From an uncultured Ignavibacteriales bacterium (GTDB lineage: Bacteria > Zixibacteria > MSB-5A5 > GN15 > JAAZOE01): a DNA stretch of 64,000 bases. Below, piece by piece: positions 48,930 through 58,569 of the stretch. Numbering within the stretch: the stretch's first letter is position 1; each line of letters begins with the position of its first letter. Both the position numbers and the translations under genes were made by a program. Below the pieces are notes generated by a model. The model saw only the letters and a list, made by a program, of their open reading frames with translations, did not search any database and was not told where the DNA came from. The DNA is taken from contig CAZGAV010000011.1 in the NCBI GenBank assembly GCA_964523575.1, forward strand, positions 2,294 to 66,293. The letters run 5' to 3'.

Positions 48930-49272
48930 CGACAGCCCTCAACCATCGAATCGAGTAATTGTCCTTTTTCCGCCTTCATCCCCGTCGCACCGAACTCAAG
49001 GAATAATTAAACGCTTGTTCAATTAGCCGCTCTGCCTTATTTTATACTCAAACCGCAGGATACTTCAGCCGACATAGGTTATAGACACAAGTCGGCAACG
49101 AAGCTTTGACAAGCCGCGCGGCGCCGTTGAACAGAATTTTTCTGGTGAGGGGGATCACCGGTTCCATCGGTTCTCGCCCGGGCATCGGTTTAAAATTGAA
49201 CGCCGACGACAGGAGGCGGTCGAAATTGTCTATTGGCAGGCAATGGGCGAGATGTATATCTCGGGCGGAAGT

Positions 49273-51642
49273 ATGACATCTATCCGAATTTTGATCATTC
49301 TCAGTCTTTTCGGGACGGCCATCGCCCTGGCCGAACCGGCGGTCAGGATCGAACACCCCGTCGTGATTTCACCCCAGGGCAATGTCAACGTCGATATTTC
49401 TCTGGACAATCCCGACAGCCTCGCCTTCGGCGGCTTTGACCTTTATATATCGTATGACTCGGCCCTGTCCCTCCAGTCGGTTTCAATGGGGCAACTTCTG
49501 ATCGATTGCGGCTGGGAGTACTTCACCTATCGCGGTGAGGGGCTCAATGAAATACGCATCGTGGCCATGGCTGAAATCAGCAACGGCGCCGCCCACCCCT
49601 CATGCTACGCCCAAACTTCGGGGACGCTGGCCCGCATCGCGTTTGTCCCCCAATGCAACCCCCTTCACGACGCCGATTTTCTTTCGATTCGTTTTATGTG
49701 GTACGACTGCGGCGACAATACCTTTTCCTCGATTGCCGGCGACACCCTGATTATTTCCCATGACGTTTACGCCTTCAATGGTCTCGACGATTTTCTCATC
49801 ACCGGGGACACCGCTTTCCCGACCCCCTACGGCGCACCCGGTCAATGCCTGCCCAATTTCCGGGGAATAGATTTCTACGGCGGCGGCATTGCGGCCATAT
49901 TCCATGATACGATACCTCCCCTCGCCCATTGTCCCGGCAATATCATAGCGGAAAACGACCCCGGCCAATGCGGCGCGAGTGTAGCTTATACCGCCTCGGT
50001 TTCGGACAACAATCCCGGAGCGACCATTACCTGCGATATACCATCCGGTTCGTTTTTCCCCGATGGTTCGACCACTGTCACCTGCATTGCCGTCGATATT
50101 CTCGATAACGCCGACACCTGTGATTTTCAGGTTAACGTCCATGATACCGAAGCGCCATCGGCCGTCTGCCCCGGGGATATGACCGTCGCCGCCGATCCCG
50201 GAACCTGCGGAGCGATTGTGCCGTTTGCGGCGGAGGTGACCGACAACTGCCCCGGCCCCACCATTTCATATTCCCCCGGACCTTCGAGTTTCTTCGAAAT
50301 CGGACCTAACCCGGTAATTTGCGTCGCTACAGACGCCGCCGGCAATGCCGATACCTGTAGCTTCACCGTCACTGTCATCGATTCCGAGCCGCCCACAATT
50401 AATTTTCCGCAAGACGTCGTCGTTCCCAACGATCCCGGCCAATGTGACGCCGAGGTCGCCTACGAGGTTACGGCCGAAGACAATTGTTCGACGGCCAATG
50501 TTTCCTGTGATCATCCTTTCGATTCCTATTTCAATCTCGGGACGACCTCCATTACCTGCATTGCCGTCGATGAAGCAGGCAATGCCGATACCGGAGTTTT
50601 TCACATAACCGTCATTGACACCCAGCCTCCGGTGGCCTCCTGCCCCGACGACACCACTCTGTACAATGAACCCGGTTTGTGCGGCGCTCATCTGGTCTTT
50701 ACTCCCACCGTTGAAGATAATTGTCCCGGCGCGACGATTTCCTGCTATCCGCCGTCGGGAGCGCTGTTTCCGACTCGGCCCCTGCCGGTCGTTTGTGTCG
50801 CCGTTGACGCCGGAGGCAATACCGATACGGTCGGCTTCACGGTCACCGTCGTCGATACTCAGCCGCCGATTGTCAATGTCCCGACCGAAGTTATTAAACC
50901 CAACGATCCCGGCCAATGCGGCACGGTTGTCGAGTTCGAAGTGAGCGTCATGGACAATTGCGCCAACGCCGTGATTTCCTGCGACCACGCTTCAGGCTCC
51001 TACTTCCCGGTGGGATTCACCGAGGTTACTTGCATCGGAAGCGACGGCTGGAACAACGCCGATACGGCGATCTTTACGGTTATCGTCTCCGACACCATCC
51101 GGCCGACTTTGTTCTGCCCCAACGATATCGAGGTCCAGAACGATTCCGGCGCCTATGGAGCCATCGTGAATTACACGCCCACCGCCGAAGACAATTGCCC
51201 CGATGTAACCATTTACACCTCGCCTCCGTCGGGCTCATTTTTCGATATTGGCACTAGAACAGTACAGGTTATCGCCACCGATAATGTCGGCAACGCCACG
51301 GTTGGCCATTTCGATGTGACCGTTACCCTCAACGATCCCGATCAGGACGGCTTCGCCACCTGGGATGATAATTGTCCCGAAACGTTTAACCCCGATCAAC
51401 TCGACTCCGACGGCGACGGTCTCGGCGATGTCTGCGACTGGCGCTACGGTGATGCCAATAATGACGATGACATCAATGTCGGTGACGCCGTTTACCTGAT
51501 CGCTTATGTCTTCAGCTATGGTCCTGGGCCGGAACCGGATCAGGCCGGCGACGCCAATTGCGACGGTCAGGCCAATGTTGCCGACGCTGTTTATTTGATT
51601 AATTACATTTTTCGCCAGGGTTCGGAACCCGGATGCCGCTGA
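49273..51642 (+). CDS. Secreted surface protein: cohesin-like domain + 6 HYR repeats + TSP3 repeat + dockerin-like module
   Basis: Start chosen at MTSIRILIILSLFGTAIALA (signal peptide). The N-domain is ...NVNVDISLDNPDSLAFGGFDLYISYDSALSLQSV.... Six ~79-aa units follow the pattern DTxPP..CP.D......G.CGA.V.......DNCPG......P.SGS.FP.G.T.V.C.A.D..GN.D.C.F.V.V. The tail is GDANNDDDINVGDAVYLIAYVF / GDANCDGQANVADAVYLINYIF. Confidence 0.85.
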   Translation: MTSIRILIILSLFGTAIALAEPAVRIEHPVVISPQGNVNVDISLDNPDSLAFGGFDLYISYDSALSLQSVSMGQLLIDCGWEYFTYRGEGLNEIRIVAMAEISNGAAHPSCYAQTSGTLARIAFVPQCNPLHDADFLSIRFMWYDCGDNTFSSIAGDTLIISHDVYAFNGLDDFLITGDTAFPTPYGAPGQCLPNFRGIDFYGGGIAAIFHDTIPPLAHCPGNIIAENDPGQCGASVAYTASVSDNNPGATITCDIPSGSFFPDGSTTVTCIAVDILDNADTCDFQVNVHDTEAPSAVCPGDMTVAADPGTCGAIVPFAAEVTDNCPGPTISYSPGPSSFFEIGPNPVICVATDAAGNADTCSFTVTVIDSEPPTINFPQDVVVPNDPGQCDAEVAYEVTAEDNCSTANVSCDHPFDSYFNLGTTSITCIAVDEAGNADTGVFHITVIDTQPPVASCPDDTTLYNEPGLCGAHLVFTPTVEDNCPGATISCYPPSGALFPTRPLPVVCVAVDAGGNTDTVGFTVTVVDTQPPIVNVPTEVIKPNDPGQCGTVVEFEVSVMDNCANAVISCDHASGSYFPVGFTEVTCIGSDGWNNADTAIFTVIVSDTIRPTLFCPNDIEVQNDSGAYGAIVNYTPTAEDNCPDVTIYTSPPSGSFFDIGTRTVQVIATDNVGNATVGHFDVTVTLNDPDQDGFATWDDNCPETFNPDQLDSDGDGLGDVCDWRYGDANNDDDINVGDAVYLIAYVFSYGPGPEPDQAGDANCDGQANVADAVYLINYIFRQGSEPGCR
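49906..51330 (+). repeat. Six tandem HYR-type coding repeats (~237 bp each, diverged)
   Basis: The repeat boundaries DTIPP, DTEAP, DSEPP, DTQPP, DTQPP and DTIRP recur every ~79 codons. Confidence 0.8.
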
Positions 51643-52776: not shown

Positions 52777-52953
52777 AAACCGCCCTCCTCAACAATCTTC
52801 AAAAATACAGTATAATAAAATTACTCTTATCAGAGGCCAGGAATTTCTCCCGGTTCTCCGCTCTTTTCCGATACGATTTCGGACATTTCCGGATTCAAAA
52901 AATATGGCCACTGGGGATGGGTTATTCGACCTCCGATTTACCCCCGATTGCTA

Positions 52954-52982
52954 TTGACAACCCTGAACCGCAGGAGTATCCT
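52954..52982 (+). promoter_or_regulatory. Sigma-70-like promoter upstream of the second sensor kinase module
   Basis: TTGACA (52954-52959), a 17-nt spacer, then TATCCT (52977-52982). This assumes the organism uses an E. coli-like housekeeping consensus. Confidence 0.4.
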
Positions 52983-53089
52983 AACGCGGGTAGGCAGTAG
53001 CCGATCCCGGCCGTGGTTTTTGAAAAAGAGTGACTTGAGCTCAATCTTTGTTTCCTGCCGGGGGCAGGATTTTTGGGGCGCGAGGAGTG

Positions 53090-54763
53090 ATGAGAGCAGA
53101 GTCGTCCCCGGGGTACGCTCCTTTCACGAAGGAGCACTATAGAGAACTCAGGCGAAAAACCGTCGTTCGCCTCCTGGTCACCTATCTGGCGCCGTTGATT
53201 CTTTTAGCGGCGTATTTTTTTTACCAGTATGACGCCATGCTCACCGAGGGCCGCCGCCTGCATCTGCGGGCCATCGCCGAAAATCAGGCCAATATCCTCG
53301 ACCTGTTTCTTTCGGAACGGCTGGTCAACCTTTCCAATCTGATCGACGATCCTAAGTTTGAAATCGCGCCGGCCCCCGTCAAACTTCAGGCCTATCTCGA
53401 CAATCTCCAGAAAAGCAGCAAGGCCTTCGTCGATATCGGTTCTTTCGATTCCTCAGGCGTCCAGGTGGCGTATGCCGGCCCCTACCCTTCGCTGGAAAAA
53501 CGCAATTACAGTTCCGAAGCCTGGTATCAGGCGCTCAGGAAAAAGCACGATAATTTCATCATCACCGATATTTACCTGGGATTTCGTCAACAGCCCCATT
53601 TTACCATCGCCGTCAGCCGTCTCATTGACGGCCAGTATATCGTCCTGAGAGCCACCCTCAGCCCGGAAAAAATTTACGAATATATCAGCGGGCTGGAAGG
53701 CTCCAACGAAGTCTTCACCTCGATTGTCAACAAGGCCGGATTTTATCAGGTGGCGACCCCCAATATCGGCACGCCGCTTCAGACTTCATCGATCGTGCCC
53801 CCCGAAACGCCCCGGCTGGGGACGGAGAAGGTTGATATTTCCGGCACCGATATCACCTATGCCTACTCCTGGCTCCGCACCGCCGATTGGGCCTTGACGG
53901 TGCAGTGGTCGGGCCCAGTCGATCAGGGATTGTTGACGGCTTTCGAATGGCGTCTTATTATCATCTCGCTGGTCGTCATCGGCCTTATCTTCGTCATTAT
54001 TATCAGCCGCGCCCGTAAACTGGTTGACCTGCAGATGGAATCGGATCGCACCCGGGCCCAGTTGGAACATGCCGCCAAGCTGGCCTCAGTCGGCGAACTG
54101 GCCGCCGGAATCGCCCATGAAATCAACAATCCCCTGGCCGTCATCAGCGAGGAAGCCGGCTTGATGAAGGATCTGATGAATCCGGAATTCGGAACGCCGA
54201 TTCAAAACACCGAACTAGTTCCTCATCTGGACAACATCAGCGAGTCGGTCTTTCGGTGCCGCGATATTACCCGCAAACTCCTGGGGTTTGTCCGCAAAAC
54301 CGATATCGATCTGCGCCGCCATAATATCCATACGATAATCGACGGCGTCGTTGACGGCCTGCTCGGTCCGGAGTTGGCCGTTTCCAATATCGAGGTCATC
54401 AGGCAATACGGCCGCGACATCCCCGAGCTGGTTACCGATCGCAACCAGCTTCAGCAGGTGTTACTCAACATCCTCAACAACGGTATCGATGCGATTGCGG
54501 GACGCGGCAAAATCACCATTACCACCTCCCTCGAAGGCAAGAGGGTTAAGATAACCATGACTGACACCGGCAAGGGTATAAGGCCCCAACATCTGGATAA
54601 AATTTTCATGCCCTTCTTCACGACCAAGGAGGTCGGCAAGGGCACCGGACTGGGGTTGTCGGTCAGTTACGGCATCATCAAAAATCTCGGTGGAGAGATT
54701 GCTGTGGAAAGCACGGTCGGCGTCGGGACGAGGTTTACGATTAAACTCTCGATCCGGCCTTGA
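53090..54763 (+). CDS. Membrane sensor histidine kinase with Cache-like domain (paralog of 6391..8097)
   Basis: It has the same architecture as the first kinase and aligns with it by eye (e.g. FVDIGSFDSSGVQVAYAGPY vs FIDLGLIDSTGLQSYYTGPY). H-box AAGIAHEINNPLAVI; DTGKGI and GTGLGLSVS boxes. The start is uncertain (the track gives 53048). Confidence 0.9.
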   Translation: MRAESSPGYAPFTKEHYRELRRKTVVRLLVTYLAPLILLAAYFFYQYDAMLTEGRRLHLRAIAENQANILDLFLSERLVNLSNLIDDPKFEIAPAPVKLQAYLDNLQKSSKAFVDIGSFDSSGVQVAYAGPYPSLEKRNYSSEAWYQALRKKHDNFIITDIYLGFRQQPHFTIAVSRLIDGQYIVLRATLSPEKIYEYISGLEGSNEVFTSIVNKAGFYQVATPNIGTPLQTSSIVPPETPRLGTEKVDISGTDITYAYSWLRTADWALTVQWSGPVDQGLLTAFEWRLIIISLVVIGLIFVIIISRARKLVDLQMESDRTRAQLEHAAKLASVGELAAGIAHEINNPLAVISEEAGLMKDLMNPEFGTPIQNTELVPHLDNISESVFRCRDITRKLLGFVRKTDIDLRRHNIHTIIDGVVDGLLGPELAVSNIEVIRQYGRDIPELVTDRNQLQQVLLNILNNGIDAIAGRGKITITTSLEGKRVKITMTDTGKGIRPQHLDKIFMPFFTTKEVGKGTGLGLSVSYGIIKNLGGEIAVESTVGVGTRFTIKLSIRP

Positions 54764-54816: not shown

Positions 54817-55371
54817 TTGGCTATGGATTCAAAAACGGTTAAAGACCTTATTGTGCCGCTCGACCAGTACGCGGTGGTGCCCGAAAGCGCGACCGTACTG
54901 GATGCCATCCGGGTCCTCAAGCTGGCCCGTGCCCAGACGTCGCCGGATCGCCACCTGCCTCGCGCCGTCGTGGTCATTGATGAAAACGAAGTCGTTATCG
55001 GACAGATTGGGCATCTCGATTTTCTCGGCGCCCTGGAACCCGCCTTTCCGCCCCGGGGCGATATTGATGTCATGACCCGGGCCGGCGTGGACGATGCTTT
55101 ACTGGATTCGGTCGTCGAAAGTCAGCGTTTCTGGCAAGGCAACCTTGACGACGCCTGTCGCCGGGTGCGGGGGATAAAGGTCACCGCAATCATGCACCCG
55201 GTCACCGACAGCATCGACGAAATGGCATCCATCTGGGATGCTATCCGCAAAATTGTCAAGATCGGGGCCATGCGCATGCTGGTTTTGAGCGGCGGTGACG
55301 TCGTCGGAATCGTGCGCCTGGCCGATCTGTTTGCCGAAATAGCCGATTGCATCGACACCGTCGAGGAGTAG
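54817..55371 (+). CDS. CBS-pair domain protein (paralog 2 of 3)
   Basis: 184 aa. TVKDLIVPLDQYAVVPESATVLDAI... aligns with the ORFs at 55449 and 9751. Confidence 0.85.
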   Translation: MAMDSKTVKDLIVPLDQYAVVPESATVLDAIRVLKLARAQTSPDRHLPRAVVVIDENEVVIGQIGHLDFLGALEPAFPPRGDIDVMTRAGVDDALLDSVVESQRFWQGNLDDACRRVRGIKVTAIMHPVTDSIDEMASIWDAIRKIVKIGAMRMLVLSGGDVVGIVRLADLFAEIADCIDTVEE

Positions 55372-55448: not shown

Positions 55449-56006
55449 ATGGATACTAAAATAGTGAAAGATTTGATGGTGCCGCTCGACGAATACGCAG
55501 TGGTGCCGGAAGAAGCCACTCTGCTGGACGCCATCAATGCCCTGGAGGCGGCGCAGAAACGCCTGCCCGAGGGACGTCAGCCGCACCGGGCGGTTCTGGT
55601 TGAGGGCAAAGATAAAAGAATCATCGGGAAAGTCGGCCAATTGGCTTTCCTCAAAGCGCTGGAGCCCAAATACAATGTCCTTGGAGATATGGAAATGCTG
55701 GCCCGGGCCGGCGTCCAGCCCGATTTCATTTCGTCGATGATGGAAAATTATCAATTCTTCCAGGACAGCCTGTCCGACTTATGCTGGCGGGGTCGAAATA
55801 TCCGGGTGCGGGATGTCATGCGCCCGGTTGCCGAACATATTGACGAGAAGGCCTCGTTGCGAGAGGCCATCCATCAGATTATCATGTTGCAGACGCTCTC
55901 GATTCTGGTCACGCGCGGCCGGGAAGTCATCGGTCTTTTGCGACTTTCCGACTTGTATGAGGAAGTGGCCGCCCAGATAAAGAACGCGCCGAGCGACTGC
56001 GAATAA
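55449..56006 (+). CDS. CBS-pair domain protein (paralog 3 of 3)
   Basis: 185 aa. IVKDLMVPLDEYAVVPEEATLLDAI.... Tandem duplicate of the preceding gene. Confidence 0.85.
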   Translation: MDTKIVKDLMVPLDEYAVVPEEATLLDAINALEAAQKRLPEGRQPHRAVLVEGKDKRIIGKVGQLAFLKALEPKYNVLGDMEMLARAGVQPDFISSMMENYQFFQDSLSDLCWRGRNIRVRDVMRPVAEHIDEKASLREAIHQIIMLQTLSILVTRGREVIGLLRLSDLYEEVAAQIKNAPSDCE

Positions 56007-56024
56007 CATCGGGGGATACATAAG

Positions 56025-58058
56025 ATGCCAAGAGTCCTTCTGGTAGACGATGAAGATAAATTCCGCGAATCGATGGCCAGCCGCCTGCGATTGCGCGGCT
56101 ATGATGTCGTAGATGTGACCAACGGCGAGGACGCCATCAAAAAAGTGAGAAGCGACGACGAAATCGACGTCGTCGTTCTGGACCGCAAAATGCCGGGGAT
56201 GAGCGGCGAGCAAACGCTCAAGGAAGTTCGAACCTTCCGCCCGGCCATTCAGGTAATCATGCTGACCGGTCACGGGTCGCTGGGTTCGGCCATGGAGGTC
56301 GGCAAACTGGAGGCTTTTTCCTATTTGCAGAAACCATGCGAACTGGAAGATTTGATCAAGACCATCGAAGAGGCCCGGGAAAACAAAGTCTTCGCCATGG
56401 AGCGCTACGAAATTCCGCGCGTTGAAAAAGGCTCAGCCTGGAAATGGCTCAAAGGTTCGCACAATTCCCGGCCCGGGGTCATTATGCTGGCGGTTCTGGT
56501 GTTTATTGGCATCCTCGCCCTGCCGACGCCGAAACGGCTGATGCAAATCGTCTCGGCCCCCAAAACCGGGCAGTTGACCGACTCCAACATGGGATACGCC
56601 AGTTACCGGAAGATGAAAGACGGCGAAACTATCGCCGATTATTACAGCAAATCTTCCGGCATGGGCGTCACCCGGGTCGACGCCGACGGCAAGAAAATTT
56701 CCGAACCTCTGCCGCCGAAGGGAGTCGCCTTCAAAGCCCGCGTTATGCTGGGCATACTGGTTGTGGCCGCCATGTTCTGGGCCACCGGCGCCATTCCGGT
56801 CGGCGTCACCGCCCTGCTGGTGGGCGTCTTCATGTACTTCTTCGGCATCCTCAAACCCGATGATATCGCGGCCGCCTATGCCAAAGACTCGGTTATCTTC
56901 ATTTTCGGAGTGCTGGCCATTTCGCTGGCCATAAGCAAAACCGGACTCGACCGGCGCATCGGCCTCTTGCTTCTGGGACCGGCCAAAAATCTGGGCCGGT
57001 ATCTTTTCATTTTTCTGCCGCTACTGGGTATCGCCTGCTCGTTTGTTTCTGAGCATGCCCTGATCGCCTTCATCATGCCGCTTTTCATTATGGTTTATGC
57101 TTCCTCGGTCCGCGCCGCCGGGCTCAAAAAGGATCGGGCTTTGGCGGTCTTGTTTATCCTGTCGGCCTGCTATGTGGCCAACTGCGGCGGCCCCGGTTCG
57201 CCGGCCGCGGGCGGACGCAACGCCGTCATGCTCGGTATCCTCACCGACTACGGCATCGCTCCCTCTTTCGGGCAATGGGTGAAATACGGACTGCCGTTCG
57301 TGCCCGTTATGGCGCTGGTGATCGCGCTCTATTTTTATCTGACGTTCCGGCGAAAATTGAAAGTGACCAACCTCAATATTTCATCGCTGGTGCGGCAGGC
57401 CTCGGAAAAAATCGGGCCGATGAATAAAAATGAATATCTGACGGCGGCGACCCTGATTCTCCTGATCTTCCTCTGGATCACGGCCAGCGACCTCTACGGT
57501 CTGGGCGGGCCGGTGATACTCTGCATCGTCCTGCTCAATATCATGCGTATCCTGCGCTGGCGCGACATCGCCTCCATTCCCTGGGATGTGGTCGCCCTCT
57601 ATGCCAGCGCCACCGCTCTGGGCAAGGGCCTGGCCGTAACCGGCGCGGCCCTGTATATGGCCGACGGTTTTATCAATCTTATGCCCGATTTTCTGACTCA
57701 CGGCACCGGGCTGGCCATTGCCGCCAGCATCTTCACCGGCATCGCCACCAATTTCATGAGCGACGGCGCCACCGTTTCGGCTATCGGGCCGATCACGGTG
57801 CCGATGGCGACCATTTCCGGGACTCATCCCTGGATGGTCGGGCTATCGACGGCTTTCGCCTCATCCTTCGCCCACATGCTGATTATCGGAACTCCCAACA
57901 ACGCCATCGCCTATGCCATGGCCAAGGACCCGGTGACCGGAGAACAAATGGTAACCCTGGGCGATTTCCTGAAACATGGTTCGGCTATTTTGCTCCTGTC
58001 ATTCGTCGTCCTGTGGTTCTGGACTTTCCTGGGCTACTGGCGCATACTTGGATTTTAG
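56025..58058 (+). CDS. Response-regulator receiver fused to an SLC13/DASS-CitMHS-type (ion-transporter superfamily) permease
   Basis: Residues 1-120 form a complete REC (LLVDDEDK, VVVLDRKMPGMSG, MLTGHGS, LQKP). After a linker comes a ~440-aa polytopic domain with FWATGAIPVGVTALLVG and the re-entrant-loop-like motifs CGGPGSPAAGGRNAV and IIGTPNNAIAYA. Confidence 0.88.
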   Translation: MPRVLLVDDEDKFRESMASRLRLRGYDVVDVTNGEDAIKKVRSDDEIDVVVLDRKMPGMSGEQTLKEVRTFRPAIQVIMLTGHGSLGSAMEVGKLEAFSYLQKPCELEDLIKTIEEARENKVFAMERYEIPRVEKGSAWKWLKGSHNSRPGVIMLAVLVFIGILALPTPKRLMQIVSAPKTGQLTDSNMGYASYRKMKDGETIADYYSKSSGMGVTRVDADGKKISEPLPPKGVAFKARVMLGILVVAAMFWATGAIPVGVTALLVGVFMYFFGILKPDDIAAAYAKDSVIFIFGVLAISLAISKTGLDRRIGLLLLGPAKNLGRYLFIFLPLLGIACSFVSEHALIAFIMPLFIMVYASSVRAAGLKKDRALAVLFILSACYVANCGGPGSPAAGGRNAVMLGILTDYGIAPSFGQWVKYGLPFVPVMALVIALYFYLTFRRKLKVTNLNISSLVRQASEKIGPMNKNEYLTAATLILLIFLWITASDLYGLGGPVILCIVLLNIMRILRWRDIASIPWDVVALYASATALGKGLAVTGAALYMADGFINLMPDFLTHGTGLAIAASIFTGIATNFMSDGATVSAIGPITVPMATISGTHPWMVGLSTAFASSFAHMLIIGTPNNAIAYAMAKDPVTGEQMVTLGDFLKHGSAILLLSFVVLWFWTFLGYWRILGF

Positions 58059-58080: not shown

Positions 58081-58569
58081 ATGCCGGATAAAATCAAATT
58101 GCTGATCGTCGATGACGAGGTCAAATATCTGGACTCGATCGCCCAGCGATTAGAATTGCGCGGCTTCGACGTCACCAAGGCATCCAGCGGAGCGGCCGCC
58201 CTTGATGCCGCCAAGGCGGGCAAATTCGATCTGGCCCTGCTTGATCTGAAAATGCCGGGCATGGACGGCACCGAAGTGCTGGCCCGCCTGAAGCAGGAGC
58301 ATAAATTCCTCGAGGTGATTATCCTCACCGGACACGGCTCACTGGACTCGGCGGTCGAATGCACCAAGCTGGGCGCCTTCGGCTATCTGCCCAAACCGTA
58401 CGAGCTGGATAATCTCCTGAGTGTGATCAGGCAGGCCTATGAGGCCCGCCTCAAGAAAAAATTCGAGCTCGACGCGGCGCGAATGGATAAAATCGCCGAA
58501 ATCGCACTCGGCTCCAGCGCCCTGGGCATTCTGCGCGAATTGTCGAAGCTGGACAACGAAGAAAAATAG
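58081..58569 (+). CDS. Stand-alone response-regulator receiver with short helical C-terminal extension
   Basis: LLIVDDEVK, ALLDLKMPGMDG, ILTGHGS, LPKP, plus a ~40-aa tail. Confidence 0.9.
   Translation: MPDKIKLLIVDDEVKYLDSIAQRLELRGFDVTKASSGAAALDAAKAGKFDLALLDLKMPGMDGTEVLARLKQEHKFLEVIILTGHGSLDSAVECTKLGAFGYLPKPYELDNLLSVIRQAYEARLKKKFELDAARMDKIAEIALGSSALGILRELSKLDNEEK

Follow-up and report, generated by a model that had tools for sequence, protein, structure and literature searches.

A receiver domain fused to a DASS-type carrier in a conserved histidine kinase cassette of uncultured bacteria: a candidate response regulator with a transporter as output

Can a two-component receiver act on a membrane transporter directly? 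This question is raised by one gene in a stretch of 64,000 nucleotides (nt; hereafter the window) from an uncultured Ignavibacteriales bacterium, placed by GTDB in the Zixibacteria (assembly GCA_964523575.1, contig CAZGAV010000011.1, positions 2,294 to 66,293 of the forward strand). At 56025..58058 on the + strand, a receiver domain (REC) is followed in the same frame by a permease of the SLC13/DASS type. With a probability of roughly 0.6, the gene is read here as encoding a response regulator that is embedded in the membrane and has a secondary transporter for its output, in which a kinase encoded in the same cassette would phosphorylate Asp53 and gate transport post-translationally, without a step of gene expression. 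The parts of the gene to which the text refers are the following, with the source of each assignment in brackets; amino acids are abbreviated aa and transmembrane helices TM.

56025 to 58058, + strand: REC-DASS fusion gene, a single unbroken frame of 677 codons (677 aa)
56025 to 56384, + strand: REC of the fusion, residues 1-120 (Pfam PF00072)
56046 to 56054, + strand: DDE, acidic pocket of REC with Asp8 and Asp9 (codon reading)
56181 to 56183, + strand: phospho-acceptor position Asp53 of REC (codon reading)
56265 to 56267, + strand: Thr81 of REC (codon reading)
56331 to 56333, + strand: Lys103 of REC (codon reading)
56385 to 56471, + strand: linker, residues 121-149 (secondary structure and pLDDT, the per-residue confidence, of an AlphaFold2 model)
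56472 to 56525, + strand: TM1 of the DASS fold, residues 150-167, PGVIMLAVLVFIGILALP (alignment with loop-less relatives, insert-deletion test)
56526 to 56714, + strand: predicted periplasmic insert between TM1 and TM2, residues 168-230, 63 aa (AlphaFold2, alignments)
56715 to 58058, + strand: DASS/SLC13-fold core, residues 231-677, TM2 to TM11 with two hairpins, and the stop codon (PF00939, VcINDY alignment)
57048 to 57056, + strand: hairpin-in tip, S342-E343-H344 (VcINDY alignment)
57210 to 57224, + strand: TM5 break, G396-G397-R398-N399-A400 (VcINDY alignment)
57759 to 57767, + strand: hairpin-out tip, S579-D580-G581 (VcINDY alignment)
57891 to 57902, + strand: TM10 break, T623-P624-N625-N626 (VcINDY alignment)

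The initial annotation of this DNA had proposed one uninterrupted open reading frame (ORF) of 677 codons joining a receiver to an SLC13/DASS permease, and this is what is found at 56025..58058 on the + strand. Both halves score above their Pfam cutoffs: residues 4-114 match Response_reg (PF00072) with E 5e-25 and 88.3 bits against a cutoff of 30.2, and residues 231-672 match Na_sulph_symp (PF00939) with E 4e-40 and 138.5 bits against a cutoff of 27, a CitMHS match overlapping the latter being weaker. The NCBIfam DASS family TIGR00785 gives the fusion protein 181.6 bits against a cutoff of 198.6, whereas unfused members of the same DASS subclade score 206-290 bits, above that cutoff. Pfam, NCBIfam, PDB and Foldseek thus agree on a protein made of REC and DASS, and its AlphaFold2 model has a mean pLDDT of 80.5 and a pTM (predicted global score) of 0.72. 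The motifs quoted in the initial annotation all lie where it had put them (DDE at codons 8-10, Asp53, Thr81, Lys103, the helix at 150-167, GGRNA at 396-400 and TPNN at 623-626). Its sizes needed a small correction: the membrane core, given as about 440 aa, is 447 aa long, and the hydrophilic stretch before it (168-230) has 63 aa and not about 70. No TrkA_C domain was found in the fusion protein by Pfam at E<=0.01, and the central loop of the carrier (about residues 442-467) is short. Pfam likewise found no SPX domain, the N-terminal domain being REC, and no HisKA or HATPase_c within the 677 aa; the kinase is a separate gene.

Could the fusion be an artefact in which the genes of a receiver and of a permease were joined by mis-assembly or by a sequencing frameshift? 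The probability of this is practically negligible. An identical protein of 677 aa was called twice, from a JGI metagenome contig and, independently, from the Logan assembly of a second sequencing run. Among 5.8 billion proteins searched there are 1,647 relatives, and the best 120 of them are 666-680 aa long, 70-100% identical, and carry REC and DASS in 120/120 cases. In a scan with one genome per species, 452 genomes encode a relative, and the best 80 of them match the protein from residue 1 to residue 677 with 60-90% identity; conservation extends to the linker and TM1. An assembly origin was rejected on the two independent assemblies, the best 120 relatives and the 80 species-level genomes. 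The gene is therefore widely conserved, with orthologues in at least 80 species-level metagenome-assembled genomes (MAGs), and all of the best 80 genomes with a full-length match are MAGs. The commonest informative label given to these 80 by their submitters is Zixibacteria, besides GN15, Calditrichaeota, Acidobacteriota, Planctomycetota/Phycisphaerales, Fibrobacteria and Myxococcota. Further searches added MAGs labelled KSB1, Latescibacterota, Hydrogenedentota, "Abyssobacteria", Thermodesulfobacteriota and Pseudomonadota. The names that databases give to the relatives are generic and at odds with one another; they include "sodium-dependent dicarboxylate transporter 2/3/5", "SLC13 family permease", "anion permease", "response regulator" and "histidine kinase".

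If the fusion is genuine, is its receiver still one that could accept a phosphoryl group? Residue conservation was counted in 76 full-length orthologues of 60-90% identity. D8, D53, T81 and K103 are each kept in 75/76 and D9 in 74/76, all five being invariant in a 40-sequence alignment, and the aromatic switch residue, Tyr100, is retained in 72/76; the column conservation of the domain is 0.71. The initial annotation had called this receiver catalytically intact, and the orthologues bear it out. As none of the five catalytic positions is changed in more than two of the 76 proteins, a working phospho-acceptor appears to be under selection in the REC-DASS family. The model of the domain shows five strand/helix repeats and matches the structure 3jte with a template modelling score (TM-score) of 0.90, normalised to the target (Foldseek). 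In a sequence search of the PDB, the closest solved receivers were those of NtrC1 and DctD, in which the signal is carried by an extended alpha-5 linker and by altered dimerisation at alpha4-beta5-alpha5. The linker of the fusion protein consists in the AlphaFold2 model of an extended alpha-5 helix (to residue 127), a hinge at 128-137 of low model confidence, and a conserved juxtamembrane segment with a short helix. Its column conservation is 0.71, W141 and R149 are each kept in 75/76 orthologues, and the W..W/L..G..RPG segment is found also in relatives without REC.

On which side of the membrane does the receiver lie? The initial annotation had seen in PGVIMLAVLVFIGILALP an extra helix between REC and the permease core, and had raised a topology question from it. 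The alignment of the native fusion with VcINDY begins at the start of VcINDY TM2, and in two relatives that lack the loop (P0124 and P0167) the first DASS helix falls on residues 150-167 of the fusion; in P0167 this helix lies under the Pfam DASS profile from position 3 on. When residues 168-230 were deleted in silico, the Pfam DASS match began at profile position 8 instead of 23 and gained 5 bits, while the start of the alignment moved from chain residue 27 to 17 in VcINDY and from 41 to 15 in SLC13A5. On these alignments, the helix at 150-167 is the canonical TM1 of the DASS fold and not an additional one. Since the N-terminus of DASS proteins is cytoplasmic, REC is predicted on the cytoplasmic side of TM1 and the 63-aa stretch in the periplasm; this is the standard N-terminus-in arrangement, and it leaves no topology problem. 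An extra helix that inverts the topology was rejected on the same deletion test and loop-less relatives.

The periplasmic insert is modelled as three short helices and a beta-hairpin with pLDDT 75-91. It is the least conserved part of the fusion protein (column conservation 0.56), and its length varies in the clade, being absent, about 60 aa, or 100-130 aa. It is absent from P0124 and P0167, present in the REC-less relatives P0128, P0131 and P0133 as well as in a relative with a Usp domain at its N-terminus, and longer in P0153, P0156 and P0165.

What kind of carrier, then, is attached to the receiver? VcINDY is the best-matching solved structure (E 7e-27 over fusion residues 235-666). By Foldseek, the fold of the core matches NaCT, VcINDY, NaS1, NaDC3, AtDiT2.1, Pho90 and LaINDY with TM-scores of up to 0.82, those for NaCT, VcINDY and AtDiT2.1 being 0.80-0.82 (normalised to the target). 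The modelled carrier has the eleven-helix DASS fold, with two re-entrant hairpins, TM1 first and the N-terminus inside. In conservation, the core ranks first within the protein (column conservation 0.80; REC 0.71), and the residues of its hairpin tips and helix breaks are kept in 74-76/76 orthologues. The two strings that the initial annotation had taken for re-entrant-loop motifs, GGPGSPAAGGRNAV and IIGTPNNAIAYA, fall instead on the TM5 and TM10 helix breaks in the VcINDY alignment. In studied DASS proteins, the binding of Na1, Na2 and substrate carboxylates falls to two SNT motifs, one at each hairpin tip (PMC7553777, PMC13394699). In the VcINDY alignment these motifs are absent from the hairpin tips of the window carrier, which has S-E-H and S-D-G instead, and Arg398, an invariant residue of the TM5 break, occupies the position of VcINDY Pro202. 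The same pattern was seen in 45 near-complete DASS representatives of 28-58% identity, fused or not, in which the first tip is (E/D)-H, the TM5 break GGxRN and the second tip S-(D/N/A)-G. The loss of SNT is thus a trait of a large DASS subclade, of which, by sequence, the carrier is an uncharacterised member. Motifs of the SEH/GGRN/SDG type occur also in unfused relatives without any signalling domain (P0122, P0128), and since they are in addition kept in 74-76 of the 76 orthologues, a working carrier is apparently under selection.

With SNT replaced by SEH and SDG, neither an SLC13 substrate nor an SLC13 coupling ion should be assumed. Glu343 and Arg398 align to Na1-site positions of VcINDY and Asp580 to a Na2-site position. 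In LaINDY, Arg159-Glu146 and His392 stand in for Na+ ions (PMC7553777), and by analogy Arg398 and Glu343 may form a built-in surrogate for the Na1 ion. The substrate is probably anionic, and its coupling would differ from the two-Na+ scheme of VcINDY and is possibly Na+-independent. No clue to the substrate came from the neighbouring genes, as nothing beyond the four genes of the cassette recurs among the flanking ORFs of 80 loci, and the only curated family name for the unfused relatives is the generic TIGR00785. The SNT-less subclade includes ordinary members of 460-480 aa beside the fused ones, and it is annotated as sodium-dependent dicarboxylate transporter, so that its substrate and coupling ion may be misassigned.

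The next question is with which proteins such a receiver might communicate. The initial annotation had placed the gene in a series of Cache kinase, two CBS proteins, REC-permease and stand-alone receiver, and this order was confirmed, the kinase being of the dCache_1/HisKA/HATPase type and the spacers 53, 77, 18 and 22 nt. The genes around the fusion in the window are as follows.

53048 to 54763, + strand: sensor histidine kinase (Pfam dCache_1 72-285, HisKA 349-417, HATPase_c 464-569)
54817 to 55371, + strand: CBS-pair protein 1 (CBS1), 184 aa, likely true start ATG 54823 (Pfam CBS)
55449 to 56006, + strand: CBS-pair protein 2 (CBS2), 185 aa (Pfam CBS)
58081 to 58569, + strand: stand-alone receiver REC2, 162 aa (Pfam PF00072, E 4.5e-30)

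In the kinase, two transmembrane segments surround the periplasmic dCache_1 domain and are followed by HisKA and HATPase_c; the phospho-His357 (codon 54116-54118) lies in the H-box HEINNPL, and the best NCBIfam and PDB matches are kinase cores of the AtoS/ZraS/NtrB type. The start listed for the gene is TTG 53048, with an alternative ATG at 53090. CBS1 and CBS2 are tandem paralogues (45% identity over 179 aa), and no PDB match to solved structures was obtained for the CBS protein. REC2 has Asp11/Asp12, Asp55, Thr83 and Lys105, a tail of about 45 aa, and 43% identity to the fused REC. Hexamers resembling sigma-70 elements lie upstream of the kinase, and inside the cluster there is no convincing intergenic terminator. 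A sigma-54 promoter for the kinase was considered and rejected: none was detected around 52777-53047, and over the whole window such matches are fewer than chance predicts.

The cassette was followed through 82 related loci by tblastn of the window proteins, most absences falling at contig ends. The kinase is upstream on the same strand in 72/82 loci, a CBS gene lies between the kinase and REC-DASS in 68/82, mostly as a single copy (e.g. L001, L002), and REC2 is directly downstream in 76/82, typically at +18 to +60 nt. Of the two window copies, CBS2 is the one conserved across genomes; its counterparts in related loci are 40-92% identical to it. When the flanking ORFs of 80 loci were all clustered without supervision, the same four recurrent families emerged (REC-DASS in 78 loci, kinase in 70, REC2 in 65 and CBS in 59), the next family being present in 10. 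In this clustering, no DNA-binding response regulator travels with the kinase cassette. By genomic linkage, the kinase found upstream in 72 of the 82 loci is the putative cognate kinase of the fused REC. In about nine loci and in L086, a Hydrogenedentota chromosome, the kinase adjoins REC-DASS without a CBS gene, and in L086 the second receiver is missing as well, leaving a minimal pair of kinase and REC-DASS. REC2 is likewise not found near the kinase and REC-DASS of L067.

Some genes beside the cassette may be recorded here. The fifth family, in 10/80 loci, is a sigma-54 activator with XylR_N/V4R (e.g. L006:250-1869) that has HTH_8 and no receiver domain and precedes the kinase gene; it is absent from the window. 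In five loci (e.g. L062:8713-9972), an ORF with a Cytidylate_kin2-like domain and a C-terminal receiver, boundaries as called, follows REC2. The SRPBCC and DinB neighbours of the window cassette are not conserved across related loci. Further upstream, at 49243-51642, the window encodes a secreted-looking protein of 799 aa with, in its translation, about seven repeats of some 80 aa having conserved Cys/Pro/Gly. After these repeats come an Asp-rich stretch resembling thrombospondin type 3 and two dockerin-like repeats (GDANxDGxxNVxDAVYLIxYxF).

The relation of receiver and carrier can also be read from relatives in which the parts are arranged differently. A Thermodesulfobacteriota MAG (L085, JAXHVL010000180.1, 1-12002) holds a fused and an unfused module on one contig. 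The fused module consists of REC, dCache kinase, REC-DASS (625 aa, without the periplasmic insert), REC and a second DASS protein (618 aa), and the unfused module on the opposite strand of dCache kinase, REC, REC and DASS. This unfused arrangement of kinase, two receivers and carrier links the parts functionally. In the same locus, the CBS half of a 300-aa REC-CBS fusion aligns over its full length with window CBS2 (E 2e-14). P0129, an ENA metagenome protein of 692 aa, has a Usp domain where the window protein has REC, and shares with it 48% core identity, the SEH/GGRN/SDG motifs, TM1 and the insert. Because Usp replaces REC in this protein, the N-terminus of the carrier suggests an interchangeable regulatory slot, occupied by REC, Usp or no domain. 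Divergent relatives show changes within the halves themselves. P0123 (659 aa) is a pseudo-receiver that has lost the acidic pocket and the Asp (NCQGQ, VETQE) while its core is still carrier-like, and P0127 (695 aa) and P0146 (676 aa) keep the REC Asp while their hairpin-tip and helix-break motifs are degenerate.

How might phosphorylation then reach the transporter? The architecture, the topology, the conserved residues, the synteny and the lack of a DNA-binding partner are results of the analysis; to these the following scheme adds, by inference, the transfer of phosphate, whether and in which direction transport responds to it, what is transported, and what REC2 and CBS contribute. The periplasmic double-Cache domain of the kinase would detect a small molecule outside the cell, and this could plausibly be the solute that is carried or a compound related to it. 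The kinase would autophosphorylate on His357, and in the fused REC Asp53 would receive the phosphoryl group. Because DASS proteins are obligate homodimers, two RECs would hang below the interface of the dimer, and TM1, to which they are connected, belongs in solved DASS proteins to the static scaffold/dimerisation domain. Phosphorylated Asp53 may alter contacts between the RECs, or between REC and carrier, with the alpha4-beta5-alpha5 face and the long alpha-5 linker as the route, as in NtrC1 and DctD. Such a change would free or brake the elevator movement of the transport domain and shift the flux within seconds, without transcription. As to the sign, we would guess that REC holds transport back until it is phosphorylated, on the model of the inhibitory SPX domain at the N-terminus of Pho87/Pho90. 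REC2 would probably draw phosphoryl groups from the same kinase, serving as a sink or timer or acting through the CBS-pair protein, which in turn would bring in an intracellular metabolite or adenylate signal. Direct phospho-control of flux is the most economical reading, because the cassette has no DNA-binding output and occurs as minimal pairs of kinase and REC-DASS. A module that works without transcription is also favoured by the swappable N-terminal domain, the unfused versions and the lack of a DNA-binding partner, and as a concept it is preceded by the SPX domain of the Pho87/Pho90 carriers (PMC7381174) and the phosphorylated IIA domain of LacS (PMC10703360). The wider picture may be put at even odds: a self-contained sense-and-gate module running from Cache kinase to REC-DASS and tuned by REC2 and CBS, representing a so far unrecognised class of transporter-output regulators, dispersed over many uncultured phyla, whose carriers form a subclade with non-canonical coupling (Glu/His/Arg/Asp in place of the SNT sites).

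Its main rival is a transceptor or co-sensor, in which the DASS domain would inform the fused REC of bound substrate or of flux by altering the rate at which it is phosphorylated or dephosphorylated, with REC2, and possibly CBS, as the output; the fusion would then be a membrane-anchored input or sink, and its DASS domain would not primarily move solute. The missing SNT transport signature is in keeping with it, as are REC2, almost as conserved as the fusion (76/82 loci), the 43% identity of the two receivers, as expected of close paralogues competing for one kinase, and the degenerate carrier motifs of P0127 and P0146 beside a retained REC. Transporter-like sensors are on record in the SLC5/STAC kinases (PMC9100948), and a transceptor role has been proposed for Pho84/Pho87 (PMC7381174). 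Nevertheless, the binding-site motifs are invariant in the fusions and identical in P0122 and P0128, which have no signalling domain, and being common to signalling-free relatives they argue for a conserved transport function. The core is moreover better conserved than REC, complete genomes with the kinase and REC-DASS (L086, L067) have no REC2 nearby, and REC2 itself has neither an output domain nor a conserved target gene. This rival is thereby weakened and is considered unlikely. Still less probable is that REC is a pseudo-receiver, never phosphorylated and acting as a constitutive cytoplasmic cap or as an oligomerisation or targeting module, while the kinase signals to REC2 alone. Such domains are common (PMC12632262), and P0123 has indeed lost its acidic pocket and Asp, but the five catalytic positions are as strictly kept in the orthologues as reported above, and the kinase gene adjoins the fusion gene directly where CBS is absent.

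Several points weigh against phospho-control of the carrier itself. The support for it is throughout genomic and sequence-based, and all carriers of the gene are uncultured MAGs. As the hinge at 128-137 is modelled with low confidence, the coupling mechanism proposed above is a conjecture. With SNT motifs absent and the TIGR00785 score just below cutoff, transport itself is not guaranteed. For REC2 and CBS, which are conserved almost to the degree of the fusion, the scheme offers only tentative roles. No match was found between the Cache domain of the kinase and solved Cache domains, the phmmer search of the PDB reaching the kinase core only. Lastly, the REC and carrier halves can evidently lose function independently, because the receiver is degenerate in P0123 and the carrier motifs in P0127 and P0146.

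Is such a system already known? Each ingredient is known by itself: the receiver and the DASS domain, two-component signalling, DASS carriers with a regulatory domain, and carriers regulated by phosphorylation. Full-text literature searches on receiver/transporter fusions, on DASS with receivers and on two-component systems of Zixibacteria, a scope that lay outside the classic response-regulator surveys, gave nothing relevant; within this scope the initial claim of an undescribed system stands, no description of REC-DASS having been found. What appears undescribed is a receiver as N-terminal regulator of a secondary transporter, within a conserved cassette that has no transcription factor. To our knowledge, the outputs of response regulators are classed as DNA-binding, enzymatic, protein-binding, RNA-binding or none. 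If the reading of direct phospho-control is true, a transporter output would add to these the direct control of flux by His-Asp phosphotransfer. The module is compact (two to four genes), occurs in at least 80 species-level genomes of several candidate phyla and has halves that exist also unfused, which makes it tractable for asking by what means a switch domain in the cytoplasm can gate a carrier of the elevator type, a question posed equally by SPX-regulated phosphate carriers and human SLC13 proteins. In addition, the analysis flags the large SNT-less subclade behind its present annotation as sodium-dependent dicarboxylate transporters, and a possible use in synthetic biology would be as a ligand-gated transport part.

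Compared with known systems, the carrier shares with VcINDY (TC 2.A.47; PF00939; PDB 4F35), its best sequence match among solved structures, the fold (TM-score 0.81 normalised to the target), the TM1-first, N-terminus-in topology and similar helix breaks (GSPPNAI in VcINDY against GGRNAV, and TPPNAI against TPNNAI). VcINDY has two SNT tips and Pro202 where the window carrier has SEH, SDG and Arg398, and only the window protein has an N-terminal REC and a 63-aa periplasmic insert after TM1. LaINDY resembles the carrier in having charged residues at the Na sites, as Glu343, Arg398, His344 and Asp580 of the carrier align with Na1/Na2 ligands of VcINDY, but its Arg159-Glu146 and His392 are at other sequence positions and it has no fused signalling domain. 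No phmmer match links the two, and their fold match is moderate (TM-score 0.56 normalised to the target).

With respect to regulation, the initial annotation had held that such permeases, if regulated at all, are normally controlled by inserted TrkA-C/RCK-C domains; this is incomplete, as the yeast carriers Pho87/Pho90/Pho91 use SPX (PMC7381174) and P0129 carries Usp. The yeast SPX-DASS proteins, like the window protein, have a cytoplasmic regulatory domain N-terminal to a DASS carrier, and one of them (PDB 8R33) matches the core by sequence (E 7e-10) and by fold (Foldseek). Removal of SPX from Pho87/Pho90-type carriers raises uptake up to eightfold, SPX being inhibitory (PMC7381174). They differ in that SPX reads inositol pyrophosphates and is no kinase-driven receiver, in being eukaryotic and in other binding-site residues. 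LacS of Streptococcus thermophilus is likewise a secondary transporter with a fused cytoplasmic phospho-acceptor domain, in which HPr~P phosphorylates the fused IIA domain and modulates transport (PMC10703360). Its fold is GPH/MFS-like, however, its domain is C-terminal, and it is a His residue that the phosphotransferase system modifies, in contrast to Asp phosphorylation by a two-component kinase. Transporters are coupled to two-component signalling also in the DctB/DcuS-DctA co-sensing pairs, and the window kinase resembles DctB in its NtrB-type core and double-Cache sensor. In the SLC5/STAC kinases CbrA and CrbS (PMC9100948), the transporter domain precedes STAC, HisKA and HATPase_c within a single protein and is, as here, physically coupled to two-component signalling. 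In both of these systems the transporter informs the kinase and the output is DNA-binding, whereas the transporter of the window is joined to the receiver, at the output end of the pathway.

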